Shown: positions 5,025 through 9,728, counted from the stretch's first letter. The stretch is 64,000 bases of DNA from Escherichia coli (GCF_017348835.2 NZ_CP071375.1); one strand, 5' to 3'. Program-made: numbers and translations. Notes: generated by a model not told the origin, from the letters alone.

Positions 5025-5702
5025 TCAGATCTCCGACCATTCCCGCAGCAGATTATGATAAAGATTAAGCAGCGACAGGATCTCTTCACTTTCGCCGTAG
5101 CGGCTTTTCAGCGACTGAATATTGTTGTCCAGTTCAAACAGCATGACGCGCTTTTTATCATCGCGGATCATCGACTGGATCCACATAAATGATGCCACTC
5201 GTACGCCGCGGGTTACGGGTGTCACGCAATGCAGGCTGCTGGAGGGATACAACACGAGATCACCTGCCGGGAGTTTTACCCGATGTTGTCCGAAGGTGTC
5301 ATTAACGACCAGTTCGCCGCCGTCGTAGCTTTCTGGATCGCTCAAAAACAGCGTGGCAGAAAGGTCAGTGCGCATCCAGCCGTTTTGCGGGTGACTGCGT
5401 ACTGCACCATCCACATGAAAACCATAGGTTTCATTGTTCTGATAGCGATTAAACAGCGGCGTGGAAAGCGTACGCGGCAAGGCCGCGGCAAAGAACAAAG
5501 CATGTTGGTTAACCGCGTTCAGCACCTCATTTTGCAGGGCGGCGTATAACGTGCTGCGGGTGTCTACCTGTTGATTGTTCTTAACTTGCGCACCTTGTGC
5601 GCCAGTGGTGACGCGTCCATCCACCCATTCGGCTTGTTCCAGTTGTTCGCGAAAACGAGCGACGTCCTGTGGCGATAGCACGCCGGGAATGTGGTACATC
5701 AT
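5025..5702 (-). CDS. ybiX: PKHD-type Fe(II)/2-oxoglutarate-dependent hydroxylase YbiX
   Basis: ORF 5025..5738 trimmed to internal MMYHIPG start (225 aa); sits 5 bp downstream of fiu stop. Confidence 0.85.
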
Positions 5703-5743
5703 ACAAGTTCTCCAAAAAGTGGGGCCTGCGCCCCACATCTCAA

Positions 5744-7733
5744 TCAGAAATGCATATTGGCCGTGAGCAAGAAGGTTCTTGGCTCGCCCGGGTGATAACG
5801 GTAGCCGCTCTTGTTGATTGAGGCGACGTAATCGGTATCAAACAGGTTGTAGACGTTTAGCTGGAAGTCGAGATTGCGATTAACCCGATACCCCAGTTTG
5901 GCATCGGCGACCCAGTAACCTTCGGTAAATGCTGGCGTTCCCACCGCGCCGTCTGAACCTTTATGCATACTGCCGATATAGCGTGCGCCCGCGCCAACAG
6001 AGATATCGTCGGTTGCCTGATATTGGCTCCATAAGGTGAAGGCGTGCTCCGGGGTATACGGCAGCGATGAGGAACCATCCTGGGCAACATCTTTGCCGTT
6101 TTTGATGGTTGCTTTTTGCTGGGTATAGCCGCCAATCACCTGCCACGCGGGAGTGATATTCCCGGCCACGGATATCTCATAGCCTTCGACGCGTTTCTTA
6201 CCGTATTGCGAGTAAGTTCCGTCATCATTTTGCTCAACTTCATTTTCGATATCAGTACGGAATAGAGCGGCGGTGAGCAACAGGCGTTTATCCAGAACCT
6301 GCCATTTGGTGCCAATCTCGCTGGTGTTGGCTTTTTGCGGTTTAAAATCGGTGCGGTTGGCACTGTTACCGCTGCCAGACTGCGCAAGGGCGAAGTTGTT
6401 GCCGCCCGGAGGCTGCTGGGAAACGGCATAGTTAATATAGACATTGCCGTTTTCCGTCAGGTGATACAGCACCCCGGCTTTCCAGTTCACCAGATTGCCC
6501 GACTTGGCGGTGTCGACGGTGGTGACCGGAGAACCTTTTGCCACACCAACTGGGCAGGTGATGGCACCGCGTCCGCTGCCGCCGCAGGCGGTGGCACTGT
6601 CATATTCAGTATGATAATTATCCAGACGGATCCCGCCGTTCAGCTCAAAATCACGGGTGATTTGCAGCGTATCGAAGGCGTAAATTGCGAAGGTGTCCGT
6701 CTGACCATTGGCGTTTGCGCCGTTGCGCGTCAGGCCGCCGGGATGAATGCTGCTGTCAGGATGATAAATATTTACCGCAGGTAACGTCACCGGATTAACG
6801 CCGTAGTTAGTCTGCGTTTCACGGGTAAATTCCACGCCGGTACTGACATCATGACCGATAGAACCGGTATAGAACGTCGAGGTCAGGTTGGTCTGGTTGG
6901 TGAGAATTTTATTACTCACATCTTTGGTATTCGCCGTGCGTGACCACGTCCAGCTATTCACATCGCTGGTGGGCTGGGTAATATTCGACGCCCCACCCAT
7001 AATCGCCGTCATCAGGTAATCCTGCTTCACGCGCGACCAACGGGTAGTGTTGCGAATGGTGGTGTTATCGTTGATGTCGTGCTCAAAACGCATGGTGGCG
7101 GTGTCGGTGGTCGAATCGTCGTAATCGGAATCCGTGCCGTAAAAGTTATGCGTATCAACTTTTCCGGAATGATTCAGGGTCGCCGTTCCTGCAGATGGGG
7201 CAGAATAGCCCGGCAAACCGATGGTTGGAATGCCGCCGTCTGGCGTGTTGTGCTGGGTGACATGCAGATAATTAAGATACAAACGATTCGCTGTACCAAG
7301 GCCAAAAGCGACAGAAGGGGCGATGCCGTAACGCTCATTTTTGACTTTGTCGCGTCCGGCATCGTGCGTTTTTTCGCCCATCACATTCAGGCGCACCGCG
7401 GTGGTATCACCAATGACCTGATTGACGTCCAGCGTGCTGCGGCGGAACCAGGCGCTGCCAATACTCGCGGAGGCGTCAATGCCCGAATCATTGCGCGGCT
7501 GCTTGCTGATCATATTGATCGAGCCCGTCGGTGCGCTGCGCCCGTAGTCGGTGCCGGACGGCCCTTTAATCACTTCGACCTGCTCGGTATTGAAGGTGTC
7601 GCGCGAGACGCTGCCGATATCGCGAATGCCATCAATATAAATGCTGTTAGAGGTATCGGCACCACGCATATAAATGGCGTCGCCAGTGGTGGAGTTACCG
7701 TTCTCACCCGCAAAAAACGCACCCACGCCGGGG
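5744..7733 (-). pseudogene. fiu: fiu, 3' fragment of catecholate siderophore TonB-dependent receptor, separated from its 5' end by IS4
   Basis: ORF 5744..7945 is Fiu barrel sequence only from PGVGAFFAGENG onward; the first 71 codons are read from inside IS4. Confidence 0.9.
7722..7733. repeat. IS4 target-site duplication, copy 1 (cccacgccgggg)
   Basis: Identical 12-mer directly abuts the other IS end at 9160..9171. Confidence 0.85.
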
Positions 7734-9159
7734 TAATGCCAGTCAGTTAAGCAACTGACTGGCTCTTTTTCGGGGCTGTGGGGTATTTCCAGGGCCTCTC
7801 CTTTACCACTCTCGGGAAGGCCCTTTCCCTTCTTGTCGGTAATTTCACAAGTTGTCCCATACTTGCAAGATCGCGCATCAGCTCCGGTATACGTCCCGGT
7901 GAAGCGCCCTGCAATGTCATCAGCATTCTCATCACCATTCCGCATGATTCTGAGAAGCTCAGTTGATTTGGCCAGTAACCTTTCAGATGTTCCGCCATTT
8001 TAATCATCTGATATCTCACCAGATTATAAGCCAGTAAGACACCCCACAGCTCTTGCTCCACAAGCTCAGGCTTTTTACTTCTCAGCGTCAGCCTGCTCAG
8101 TTGCATCGTCTGTTTTATCTCCCTGTATCCCAGTTCGATTTCCCAGCGATGACTGTACAGATCCGCCATTTCTCCTCCGGGGAAGCGCATGGCGTCCGTC
8201 ATCGACGTCAGCAGATGGCAGACTTTTCCTTTGCGCGTCACGGTCAGCAGGCGGGCTGTCACCTCATTTCCCAGTCCCGGCCACTTTTTTCGTGCCTGCG
8301 GGCTGGTTTTCAGCTTCACCAGATGATCGCCTTTACCCAGTTTTCTGATCTCTTCATATTGCGCTCCCTTTCTGAGAGGGATCATCCAGTGGCGGTGTTC
8401 TCCCGCCAGGCTCCAGGCATTTAACAATCCCAGTGAGTAATAACCTTTATCCATTAACGTCAGAGTGTTATCGCCGGTTTGTTCTATAAGTTGCTCAGCA
8501 AGCTCATTTTCGCTGTTCTTCATCGTGCCGAAGGCTGCAGCCGTCAGCAGATGGCTGGTCAGTTCCATCTGGCAGACCATTTTGACCTGCGGGTAGAGCG
8601 CCGGGGTCCCGGCATGTGTCTGGCGAGGGAAGGCTGCATCGTTCTCTGGTGTATCCGGTGTGCGCCAGAACACACCATCGATGGCCAGCAGGGTCAGGCC
8701 GCACCAGTGCGGATGCGGCGTGGCGTTATGCCAGAGCTGCGCTGTTTTCGTGAACACGCGGCGGACAGCCTCACTTCCCAGGCGCTGGCGGGCCTGAATA
8801 ACAGCACTGGGGGCAACGAAGGTGCGATTGCCCGGCAGCATGATGTCCAGGCGATTCACAATCTGGTGAAGAGGTTCTTTACGCTCAAGCGCCATGCCAA
8901 CAATACACCAGACCATCATTTCGAGGGGAAGACGGCGCTTGCGTAGCGTTACAGTACCTGATTCGGCAAGGCAACGAGAGATGAGTTCGGGGTCGAGGTA
9001 ATCTCCCAGAGAAGTCAGTGGGTTACGCAGAGAATCGTAACGGGATACCAGATCAAGAGCCTGTCCAATGTGCATAAAAAAATCCGGAAACGAGTGAGCG
9101 TTTCCGGATTCTTACACAGCCACTGGATCGGTCAACTGATCCTTAACTGATCGGCATTA
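7734..9159 (-). mobile_element. IS4: IS4 insertion sequence, complete 1426-bp copy
   Basis: Imperfect terminal inverted repeats taatgcc(a/g)..tcagttaag at both ends; single 442-aa DDE transposase ORF; 12-bp flanking direct repeat; length matches IS4. Confidence 0.93.
7747..9075 (-). CDS. insG: IS4 transposase InsG
   Basis: 442-aa ORF starting [15 protein letters not shown], recognised as IS4 transposase. Confidence 0.93.
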
Positions 9160-9171
9160 CCCACGCCGGGG
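9160..9171. repeat. IS4 target-site duplication, copy 2 (cccacgccgggg)
   Basis: Direct repeat of 7722..7733. Confidence 0.85.
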
Positions 9172-9464
9172 ACGTTTTTGAGCGCGTCGGTAAGGTTGGT
9201 TGCGCCCTGATCTTTAATCACTTGTTCAGAAATCACCGTCATCGTGCGGGTAGTATCCGCTACCGGACGCGAGAATTTCGGATCGGCAGATTGTTGTGGC
9301 GCATAAAGCGAAGGCGTTGATGCTTCGACAACCAGCGTGTCATCCGCGTTAGTTTGCCCTTCGGCAGCGAGTGCCTGAGCCACAGGCGTGATGCCAATAC
9401 AAAGACCGGCAAAGAACGTGAGCGAATGAAATTGTCTGGCAGGGAAATTGCGATTGTTTTCCAT
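9160..9464 (-). pseudogene. fiu: fiu, 5' fragment (signal peptide, TonB box, start of plug), truncated by IS4
   Basis: ORF 9132..9464 begins MENNRNFPARQFHSLTFFAGLCIG; frame runs into IS4 and stops after 8 IS-derived codons. Confidence 0.9.
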
Positions 9465-9568
9465 TTTGCAGGTGACTTTTTCTTATATGTTGAAATTTTC
9501 ACTGCCACGAGAAAGCCTCTCTGCGGATGCGATGCCGCTGTTAATCTCGTGATAGCGTTCGTGCAAGT

Positions 9569-9595
9569 GATAATAGTTTTGATAAGCATTATCAC
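9569..9595 (-). promoter_or_regulatory. Candidate Fur box in the fiu promoter
   Basis: gataatagttttgataagcattatcac resembles Fur consensus GATAATGATAATCATTATC; about 100 bp upstream of fiu start. Confidence 0.55.
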
Positions 9596-9728
9596 TTGGC
9601 GCGATTTTCTATCACCCATTGCGCGAAAAAGAAATACATTTATTTACATTGCGTTCATATTTGATGTTTTTTGATTACAAAACAGGCGAAAACTGCATCC
9701 AGAGGCGAATGCAGTTACGTTGGTGGGG

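Follow-up and report, generated by a model that had tools for sequence, protein, structure and literature searches.

The fiu gene of this Escherichia coli genome is a null allele through insertion of IS4 at a target site of the kind that the element prefers, and, as the initial annotation of the 64-kb window (the whole 64,000-nt stretch analyzed) had proposed, the element parts the Fur-regulated promoter and 5' portion of fiu from its 3' portion and from ybiX. The explanation that we regard as probable for the locus as a whole is that loss of Fiu is accompanied by strong polarity on ybiX, which would be uncoupled from Fur and iron control, with ybiI being served by its own promoter. Viewed as regulation, this would be textbook IS polarity, a genuine yet unremarkable case of a familiar class of polar insertion; the modestly interesting aspect is a recurrent hot spot within an operon relevant to cefiderocol.

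Anatomy of the interrupted locus

Coding sequences and signals of the locus are collected in Table 1; fiu, IS4, ybiX and ybiI are all on the minus strand. From its ATG at 9464, fiu extends for 305 nt, as far as 9160, before the element interrupts it. The ORF that results consists of fiu codons 1-101, a junction codon that still specifies Gly102, and 8 IS4-encoded residues, and its product would comprise the signal peptide, the TonB-box region and the Plug domain as far as its first third (positions 2-36 in a profile of 107). What remains downstream of the element matches Plug positions 38-106 and the TonB_dep_Rec_b-barrel profile. RefSeq annotates both pieces as pseudogenes, the 5' fragment as 'missing C-terminus' and the 3' fragment as 'missing N-terminus'. 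With IS4 and one repeat copy removed, fiu is an uninterrupted 760 codons with 6 amino-acid differences from its K-12 counterpart, and since the gene is otherwise undamaged the insertion event is probably recent.

Membership of IS4 entails a length of ~1426 bp, imperfect ~18-bp terminal inverted repeats and an 11-13 bp target-site duplication. In addition to having that length and a 12-bp duplication, the element here has terminal inverted repeats at 9141-9159 and 7734-7752 (TAATGCCGATCAGTTAAGG and TAATGCCAGTCAGTTAAGC) with 3 mismatches in 19 positions, and a single DDE transposase ORF with an IS4-type N-terminal domain (Pfam Nterm_IS4, 1e-33; DDE_Tnp_1, 1e-31), whose product is identical to K-12 InsG at 438 of 442 residues. 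It is full-length and apparently active. Entry was between codons 102 and 103 of restored fiu, the duplicated 12 bp being codons 98-102.

Table 1. Coordinates of genes, IS4 components and candidate signals at the fiu locus (window positions)
Feature	Position	Strand	Description
Fur-box array	9563..9599	-	Four overlapping 12-14/19 matches to GATAATGATAATCATTATC in a 6-bp register
Truncated 5' fiu ORF	9132..9464	-	110 aa, ORF call; true fiu sequence stops at 9160
Target-site duplication, upstream copy	9160..9171	-	CCCCGGCGTGGG; 12-bp direct repeat
IS4, complete	7734..9159	-	1426 bp, same orientation as fiu; terminal repeats, RefSeq, domains
IS4 transposase promoter-like site	9108..9135	-	TTGACC-16-TGtAAGAAT; consensus scan, putative function
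IS4 left-end terminator-like hairpin	9076..9113	-	15-bp stem, 6-nt loop, U7; directly upstream of transposase ATG
IS4 transposase CDS	7747..9075	-	442 aa, intact
IS4 right-end hairpin, terminator-like	7738..7772	+	11 bp + UCUUUUU; -18.7 kcal/mol, z -4.4
Target-site duplication, downstream copy	7722..7733	-	CCCCGGCGTGGG; 12-bp direct repeat
3' fiu fragment	5744..7733	-	Remaining Plug domain and beta-barrel; without start codon or signal peptide
fiu-ybiX spacer intrinsic terminator	5714..5736	-	GUGGGGC-GCAG-GCCCCAC + U5; -15.6 kcal/mol
ybiX	5025..5702	-	225 aa, intact 2OG/Fe(II) PKHD-type hydroxylase; domains 2OG-FeII_Oxy_3 and PKHD_C; 2 aa differences from K-12
Second Fur-box-like 19-mer, candidate	5051..5069	-	14/19; inside ybiX 3' end, ~100 nt upstream of ybiI ATG
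ybiI promoter-like site	4994..5021	-	TTGAAC-16-TATATT; consensus scan
ybiI	4685..4951	-	DksA/TraR-type zinc-finger protein; ORF call, RefSeq, profile match

At the upstream side of the locus, the Fur box first placed at 9569..9595 falls inside the consensus-matching array, which overlaps the -10 GATAAT (9593..9588) of a promoter-like site at 9615..9588 identified by consensus scan. Matches of 14/19 are rare, with only 5 among the ~64,000 19-mers of the window. The region has a single substitution relative to the K-12 fiu promoter, whose lacZ fusions are repressed by Fur (PMC4676285), and a difference of one base suggests that the promoter here is likewise Fur-repressed.

The boundary between fiu and ybiX is less intimate than the initial annotation had it. 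Its 5-bp distance from the fiu stop came from the longest ORF (ATG 5738); the real start of ybiX, in RefSeq and in K-12, is 5702, with a GGAGA Shine-Dalgarno 7 nt upstream and a spacer of 41 nt. The 5738 candidate was rejected, as it lacks a Shine-Dalgarno and its ATG is at the 5' edge of a hairpin, the G being the first stem base (5736). That hairpin, with its U5, is an intrinsic terminator, and a K-12 term-seq 3' end at 839219 corresponds to window position 5714, its last U (PMC7815308 supplementary file 1). fiu and ybiX have been handled as one Fur-controlled operon (PMC4676285; bioRxiv 10.1101/2025.02.14.638246; PMC12004943), to which some literature adds ybiI, and the Fur-1 iModulon includes both ybiX and ybiI. 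A common strand, the 41-nt spacer and the co-regulation by Fur described in the literature accord with operon status. The tight, terminator-free translational linkage that had been assumed does not: a terminator that works in K-12 lies between the two genes, and ybiX therefore needs terminator read-through even in intact strains.

For ybiI the suggestion of a separate promoter now has independent backing from the promoter-like site of Table 1, from genomic-SELEX RNA polymerase peaks with four sigma factors in the ybiX-ybiI spacer (PMC5493296), and from RNA 3' ends, those of ybiI being abundant in LB in a data set where no fiu 3' end is listed (PMC7815308). ybiI would be expected to retain this promoter in the interrupted locus. 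Further downstream and outside the feature, a REP-type naRNA4 at 4083-4153 is the sole Rfam match in 3500-10500.

Predicted fate of transcripts approaching ybiX

Under iron limitation, transcripts from Pfiu would encode just the 110-aa N-terminal stub of Fiu and would then reach the 15-bp hairpin and U7 inside the left end of IS4. This hairpin is just inside the end at which they enter, and faces them. Its stem has a core of 12 perfect pairs, of which 6 are G-C, with the U7 on the transcribed strand as befits a terminator; its folding energy is -27.6 kcal/mol over 60 nt (z -7.1) or -19.7 kcal/mol over 38 nt (z -7.4), and it is conserved across 6 IS4 copies. The consensus terminator scan did not list it, probably because the extension of the stem uses up the U-tract. 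Structure, orientation and conservation suggest that it would act as a terminator on Pfiu transcription.

Transcripts that escape would traverse the transposase gene; the 1.99 kb of fiu beyond it would go untranslated, and Rho-dependent termination is to be expected there. The transposase stop at 7747 is 13 nt from the end of the element and the fiu frame differs from that of transposase, so that no ribosomes enter 3' fiu, whose 1.99 kb RNA, if made, is probably untranslated. (An ORF at 5744-7945 begins inside IS4 and is in the fiu frame; were it translated, Rho polarity would be lessened.) For survivors the last barrier would be the native terminator in the fiu-ybiX spacer. With the left-end hairpin, the untranslated fiu RNA and the spacer terminator in series, ybiX would most likely be uncoupled from Fur and iron, losing its iron-responsive expression, and would most likely be silent, or expressed at a level that is low and iron-independent.

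From where else might ybiX be transcribed? The initial annotation had named read-through or an IS-derived promoter as the possible sources of its iron-responsive expression; the left-end hairpin and spacer terminator argue against the one and the lack of a visible outward promoter against the other, as far as sequence can tell. An outward or hybrid promoter at the right end of IS4 was rejected as a probable source, as both consensus and relaxed sigma-70 scans were empty near the junction in the direction of ybiX. Scans of the last ~1 kb before ybiX and of the outward-facing IS4 end revealed no sigma-70 site facing ybiX with a match of 9/12 or better and no close sigma-E-like site. Weak sigma-70-like sites are at 7662..7634 and 6790..6761; the latter, the only one to reach 9/12, is inside fiu, ~1 kb upstream of ybiX.

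That second site overlaps a 12/19 Fur-like word (6757-6775), and it is one of the reasons for considering that ybiX stays iron-responsive by means of its own, possibly Fur-sensitive, promoter in 3' fiu or the spacer, with IS4 mattering little. Others are a genomic-SELEX RpoE peak inside the 3' half of fiu, ~490 bp upstream of the fiu stop at approximately window position 6230 (PMC5493296), the speculation in a mouse-gut evolution paper that a selected spacer mutation affects a ybiX promoter, and the intactness of ybiX in all fiu::IS4 genomes examined whose compared stretch included it, which is compatible with ongoing use. A search for a sigma-E promoter to go with the RpoE peak gave one poor match, at 6833..6807, away from the position of the peak. 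We consider a separate ybiX promoter of this sort unlikely. Words matching at 12/19 are common (78 in the 64-kb window), and no Fur-like 19-mer matching at 13/19 or better was found between 5703 and 7733. The candidate 1 kb upstream is beyond both untranslated RNA and a working terminator, and within the 41-nt spacer, hairpin, U-tract and Shine-Dalgarno take up the available sequence so that no promoter fits there. The publications consulted, moreover, present fiu and ybiX as one unit (PMC4676285; bioRxiv 10.1101/2025.02.14.638246; PMC12004943).

A source within IS4 is the internal promoter of transposase rather than an outward-facing one, read-through from which would give low constitutive transcription of ybiX. 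IS4 and ybiX share orientation, and the promoter-like TTGACC-16-TGtAAGAAT has as its -10 the first 6 nt of the 5' arm of the left-end hairpin. Its predicted start is inside that arm, and so the transposase transcript should escape the left-end terminator; the right-end hairpin has no U-tract directly after it on the minus strand. Against this, once past the transposase stop the polymerase would meet a small hairpin with U6 at the IS4/fiu junction (7735..7720), and both the 1.99-kb untranslated stretch and the spacer terminator would still lie ahead. Transposase promoters are also generally weak, and we judge such low constitutive supply of ybiX from this source improbable. Strong polarity from Pfiu, with ybiX cut off from Fur, is the reading retained below. 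The right-end hairpin on the plus strand faces transcription entering from the other end of IS4 and is pertinent to genomes in which the element is inverted.

Recurrence of IS4 at the fiu site

Of 5426 complete E. coli genomes, 76 (~1.4%) carry IS4 at the identical fiu site, in both orientations (inverted in 31) and in unrelated fiu alleles. Inheritance by descent of a single ancestral fiu::IS4 was rejected on three counts: the occurrence of both orientations, SNPs between alleles within 1-250 bp of the junctions, and a K-12-type 3' fiu that, with 0 differences in 1990 bp, occurs in an uninterrupted gene as well as next to IS4 in either orientation. The site, CAAAAACGT[CCCCGGCGTGGG]TGCGTTTTTTG, combines an A-run and a T-run with a GC-rich near-palindrome, features shared by six other reconstructed IS4 sites. 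It resembles the terminator-like palindromes used by the element elsewhere, yet is inside a coding sequence and not an intergenic terminator.

These findings lead us to propose, tentatively and with slightly more doubt than conviction, that mimicry of the bidirectional-terminator-like palindromes favored by IS4 makes the site a natural hot spot for the element, providing a recurrent and reversible one-step knockout of Fiu-YbiX, with the terminator hairpin between fiu and ybiX being a second hot spot, for elements of IS186/IS421 type. IS4 has entered the fiu site repeatedly, in either orientation and across unrelated E. coli lineages, and, on the same tentative reading, even a laboratory derivative of K-12 is among those affected. 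The module knocked out would be that for catecholate and cefiderocol uptake by Fiu-YbiX. Selection as a necessary cause of the frequency of fiu::IS4 was rejected, since an intergenic IS4 site adjoining eno is occupied in 84 genomes; it is a possible contributor, though not needed. A full-text literature search for IS4 together with fiu yielded no report of fiu as a recurrent IS4 site. If the hot spot is indeed unreported, it offers a predictable mutational route to lower uptake of siderophore-antibiotics and a simple marker for that route. With the same site being hit recurrently, fiu::IS4 in surveillance genomes is unfit as a clonal marker.

Known systems and significance

Classical polar insertions are those of IS1, IS2 and IS4 in gal and lac, and IS4 itself was discovered through a polar mutation of galT. 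As there, the element is in a promoter-proximal gene and distal loss is expected via IS-borne terminators and Rho. The differences are that polarity at fiu is predicted and that a terminator active in K-12 is already present between fiu and ybiX, so that ybiX was only partly coupled from the start.

A closer relative involves the same operon. An ISKpn8 insertion that arose between fiu and ybiX during cefiderocol selection was interpreted as distancing ybiX from its promoter, and loss of ybiX together with loss of cirA was linked to high cefiderocol MICs (bioRxiv 10.1101/2025.02.14.638246). The proposed logic, ybiX being moved away from the Fur-regulated fiu promoter, is the same, but there fiu is intact, the IS is a different one and the origin is the laboratory, whereas here fiu is destroyed. 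Any ybiX effect here is consequently confounded with loss of Fiu and, should YbiX act on nothing but Fiu-imported substrates, may be phenotypically redundant. This strain has lost one catecholate receptor and probably also its conserved partner dioxygenase, the iron-regulated YbiX. Both proteins affect how catechol-conjugated drugs, cefiderocol among them, are taken up, particularly once CirA is lost, and for this reason a pre-existing fiu::IS4 could lower the barrier to resistance.

IS10 and IS50 use fold-back RNA structures to shield their transposase genes from outside transcription. The left end of IS4 appears to be arranged similarly: transcripts from outside would carry the complete hairpin beside the transposase start, and the element's own, starting inside it, would be without the 5' arm. 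The distinction is the U7 that follows the IS4 hairpin, which gives it the look of a true terminator and not only of a trap for the ribosome-binding site.

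The interrupted fiu locus

The window is E. coli chromosomal DNA. The genes considered here are all encoded on the minus strand, and their order (see table) bears out the initial annotation in that IS4 parts the start of fiu, the gene for an iron (catecholate) receptor, from the remainder of fiu and from ybiX, which encodes a 2OG/Fe(II) PKHD-type hydroxylase. The element has the terminal repeats TAATGCCGATCAGTTAAGG and TAATGCCAGTCAGTTAAGC, is flanked by a 12-bp direct repeat, CCCCGGCGTGGG, and has an intact transposase ORF of 442 amino acids (domains Nterm_IS4 and DDE_Tnp_1 in a profile search), 438 of them identical in K-12 InsG and four changed. 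The insertion interrupts the Fiu Plug domain, with profile position 36 on one side and 38 on the other. Excision in silico of IS4 together with one repeat copy restores an uninterrupted 760-codon fiu with only six amino-acid differences from K-12, so there is no other damage in the gene and the insertion was probably a recent event. In a search of E. coli genomes the pig isolates PE164 and F2_81 matched 4500-10500 over its full length with one mismatch, and for PE164, which has the identical arrangement, RefSeq annotates fiu as two pseudogene fragments with an IS4 transposase between them.

Features of the fiu::IS4 region in fiu-direction order
Feature	Coordinates	Strand	Remarks
mcbA		minus	followed by fiu promoter region
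fiu 5' part	9464-9160	minus	305 nt from ATG 9464
IS4	9159-7734	minus	same direction as fiu; 1426 bp exactly
fiu 3' part	7733-5744	minus	
fiu-ybiX spacer		minus	41 nt
ybiX	5702-5025	minus	
ybiI	4951-4685	minus	

The window's IS4 copy differs by 13-17 SNPs from seven of nine other fiu-resident copies (AR0077, ECONIH1, O121, APEC16, elppa5, RMDEC465 and VR50), which differ by 0-6 among themselves, and the inverted copies of PI6 and UMNF18 are 7-15 SNPs from the rest; judged by sequence it is a distinct IS4 sub-variant. The 5' part of fiu now runs into IS4 as a 110-aa ORF (9132-9464) under the Fur-controlled promoter, made up of the Fiu signal peptide, the TonB-box region, one third of the Plug domain and eight IS-encoded residues, and from its stop the terminator-like hairpin of IS4 is reached within ~20 nt.

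Predicted barriers between the fiu promoter and ybiX

The candidate Fur box at 9569-9595 in the initial annotation is sound as a predicted box. Four overlapping 19-mers in 6-bp register form an array around it (9563-9599), with 12-14 of 19 positions matching GATAATGATAATCATTATC; 14/19 is reached by only 5 of the ~64,000 19-mers in the window. A promoter-like site at 9615..9588 (consensus scan) has a -10 hexamer that this array overlaps. One base distinguishes the box from that of K-12, whose fiu promoter-lacZ fusion is Fur-repressed (PMC4676285).

A transcript from this promoter would first meet a predicted terminator at the left end of IS4, a 15-bp hairpin (AAGAAUCCGGAAACG / CGUUUCCGGAUUUUU) with U7, 46-83 nt inside the element and directly before the transposase ATG. 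It folds at -19.7 kcal/mol over 38 nt (z = -7.4; no shuffle folded as well) and recurs in all six IS4 copies compared between genomes, the one difference being a G-C pair versus G-U; a consensus terminator scan missed it, likely because the stem extension uses up the U-tract. Just upstream is a promoter-like TTGACC-16-TGtAAGAAT (consensus scan; 9108-9135) whose -10 coincides with the opening six bases of the hairpin's 5' arm, so that IS4's own transcript would be without that arm and a transcript from outside would have the whole terminator. At the right end an 11-bp hairpin followed by UCUUUUU is on the opposite strand and faces inward (7738-7772). We infer that IS4 shields the transposase gene from transcription entering at either end, which, if true, would also account for polarity whichever way the element is inserted.

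Transcripts that got past the left-end hairpin would cross the transposase gene and then 1.99 kb of fiu without incoming ribosomes; the transposase stop (7747) is 13 nt before the end of IS4, and the transposase frame differs from that of fiu. Rho-dependent termination is expected in untranslated RNA of this kind. A 733-aa ORF (5744-7945) that begins at ATG 7945 inside IS4, in a frame other than that of the transposase, and reads across the right terminal repeat into fiu, in frame as far as the stop of that gene, would, if translated, soften Rho polarity and so count against an uncoupling of ybiX; no Shine-Dalgarno sequence is visible for it. The last barrier before ybiX would be the native terminator in the spacer.

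That spacer is longer than the 5 bp between the fiu stop and ybiX initially annotated, a figure derived from the longest ORF with its ATG at 5738; this start is ruled out by the RefSeq and K-12 start at 5702, which has GGAGA 7 nt upstream. Within the spacer GUGGGGC-GCAG-GCCCCAC is followed by U5 (-15.6 kcal/mol), and ATG 5738 is at the 5' edge of the hairpin, whose stem begins with the G of that codon. Term-seq of K-12 mapped a 'primary' fiu RNA 3' end at 839219, on the M63 minimal-medium sheet only (PMC7815308 supplementary file 1), and this converts to 5714 in the window, the last U of the U5 tract. Fiu and ybiX are therefore separated, also in intact strains, by a terminator that works in K-12, ybiX co-expression needs read-through, and the native linkage is looser than had been assumed. 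Fiu-ybiX, sometimes fiu-ybiX-ybiI, has been described as one Fur-controlled operon (PMC4676285; bioRxiv 10.1101/2025.02.14.638246; PMC12004943), and the Fur-1 iModulon includes ybiX and ybiI.

The M63 data have additional RNA 3' ends at 841454 (window ~9387, 77 nt into the fiu ORF) and 838863 (window ~5358, 344 nt into ybiX), which suggest that transcripts end early or are processed inside each of the two genes. Among other fiu::IS4 loci, the spacer is ~215 nt in APEC 16-1068 (L005:945-1159) and RMDEC465 (L007:946-1157), with a ~174-bp REP/BIME-like insert that partly duplicates the terminator hairpin. In O121 strain 201805972 (L004:1100-1175) a second IS, annotated IS421 and having the IS186-type end CATAAGCGCTAACTTAAGGG, is inside the hairpin, directly after GGGGCGCAGGCC; five junction-search matches (H3, H7, H8, H12 and H15) likewise have a second IS there, and such strains have two ISs between the fiu promoter and ybiX. 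The GGGG-N6-CCCC hairpin presumably fits the GC-rich target of IS186.

With its predicted polarity fiu::IS4 is a textbook polar IS insertion, and IS4 itself was discovered as a polar insertion in gal. The same regulatory logic has been proposed for ISKpn8 between fiu and ybiX, selected under cefiderocol (bioRxiv 10.1101/2025.02.14.638246).

Expression of ybiX and ybiI

Is ybiX left with a promoter of its own? Consensus and relaxed scans found no sigma-70-like site of at least 9/12 facing ybiX near the right end of IS4, and the only sites inside the 3' part of fiu, 7662..7634 and 6790..6761, are weak and no nearer than 1 kb to ybiX; no close sigma-E-like site that could drive ybiX was found by scanning, nor any Fur-like word of at least 13/19 within 5703-7733 in the 19-mer scan. 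With the barriers described above, these scans make it quite probable that ybiX is uncoupled from iron and Fur control and is silent or weakly constitutive. The earlier proposal that it depends on read-through or an IS-derived promoter is partly supported and can be sharpened: read-through is unlikely and no IS promoter is evident. It is rather improbable that ybiX keeps its own or an iron-responsive expression through a promoter in 3' fiu or the spacer, even given a genomic-SELEX RpoE peak inside the fiu 3' half (PMC5493296), the guess in a mouse-gut evolution study that the ybiX promoter is within the spacer, and an intact ybiX in every fetched fiu::IS4 genome whose retrieved stretch covered it (that of the window has only two substitutions relative to K-12). 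The weak site 6790..6761 does overlap a 12/19 Fur-like word, but such words are common, with 78 in the window.

For ybiI, a DksA/TraR-type zinc-finger gene, the promoter of its own that was thought probable gains support from RNA polymerase SELEX peaks for four sigma factors in the ybiX-ybiI spacer (PMC5493296), a promoter-like TTGAAC-16-TATATT at 5021..4994 (consensus scan), and LB data in which ybiI 3' ends are abundant and no fiu 3' end is listed (PMC7815308 supplementary file 1). A Fur-like 14/19 word at 5051-5069, one of the five at that level in the window, is inside the last ybiX codons ~30 bp upstream of the promoter-like -35, and through this candidate ybiI might have iron control of its own. 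Downstream of ybiJ there is an Rfam match to naRNA4, a REP-derived nucleoid-associated RNA (4083-4153, minus strand, 72 bits).

The insertion matters mainly through the contribution of Fiu, and apparently also of YbiX, to uptake of catechol-conjugated drugs (bioRxiv 10.1101/2025.02.14.638246). Fiu-type transporters and YbiX-type dioxygenases are a conserved, functionally linked pair (PMC12004943), and if YbiX acts only on Fiu-imported substrates, lost ybiX regulation in a fiu-null strain would add no phenotype.

Recurrence of IS4 at the fiu site

The most interesting by-product is the hot-spot behaviour of the site. When 5426 complete E. coli genomes were searched for the junctions, IS4 was found there (7722-9171 in the window) in 76 (45 in the orientation of the window, 31 inverted), and the site was intact in 5347; the literature searched yielded no paper linking IS4 with E. 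coli fiu. Most IS4-bearing alleles differ by 24-80 SNPs across the 1990-bp 3' part of fiu, some as near as 1-250 bp to the junctions, and one allele, with no differences over that length, occurs in three states: intact in MG1655, with forward IS4 in an O121 strain, and with inverted IS4 in VR50 and UMNF18. Together with an IS4 remnant at the site in the K-12 derivative Origami2(DE3), these unrelated alleles and the three-state allele point to many independent insertion events, so that by sequence comparison the site is a recurrent IS4 hot spot and not a clonal marker.

The target, CAAAAACGT[CCCCGGCGTGGG]TGCGTTTTTTG, shares with six other reconstructed IS4 sites, several of them obvious intergenic bidirectional terminators, a pattern of A-run, GC-rich palindrome and T-run, in keeping with the strong specificity for target arms that has been described in the IS4 subgroup (PMC2266710). 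Two control sites were counted, an intergenic one adjoining eno, occupied in 84 genomes, and a ytfT-like one, occupied in one. On these counts target preference alone is enough to explain how often fiu is hit; selection favouring Fiu loss may have acted but need not be invoked.

In Origami2(DE3) (L011:4382-4518) all that remains of IS4 after a fiu 5' fragment is the final 54 bp of an inverted copy, and an IS186 end and then nupC-mntH come next. This indicates an IS-mediated rearrangement that broke at the fiu::IS4 site, a possible alternative being an artefact of assembly. Eleven fetched loci use the same 12-bp duplication with the sole exception of the upstream copy in RMDEC465 (L007:4574-4590), which reads CGGCACATTGCCG opposite a normal downstream copy; recombination between IS4 copies (~31 IS4 matches in that genome) or a long-read assembly error could be responsible.
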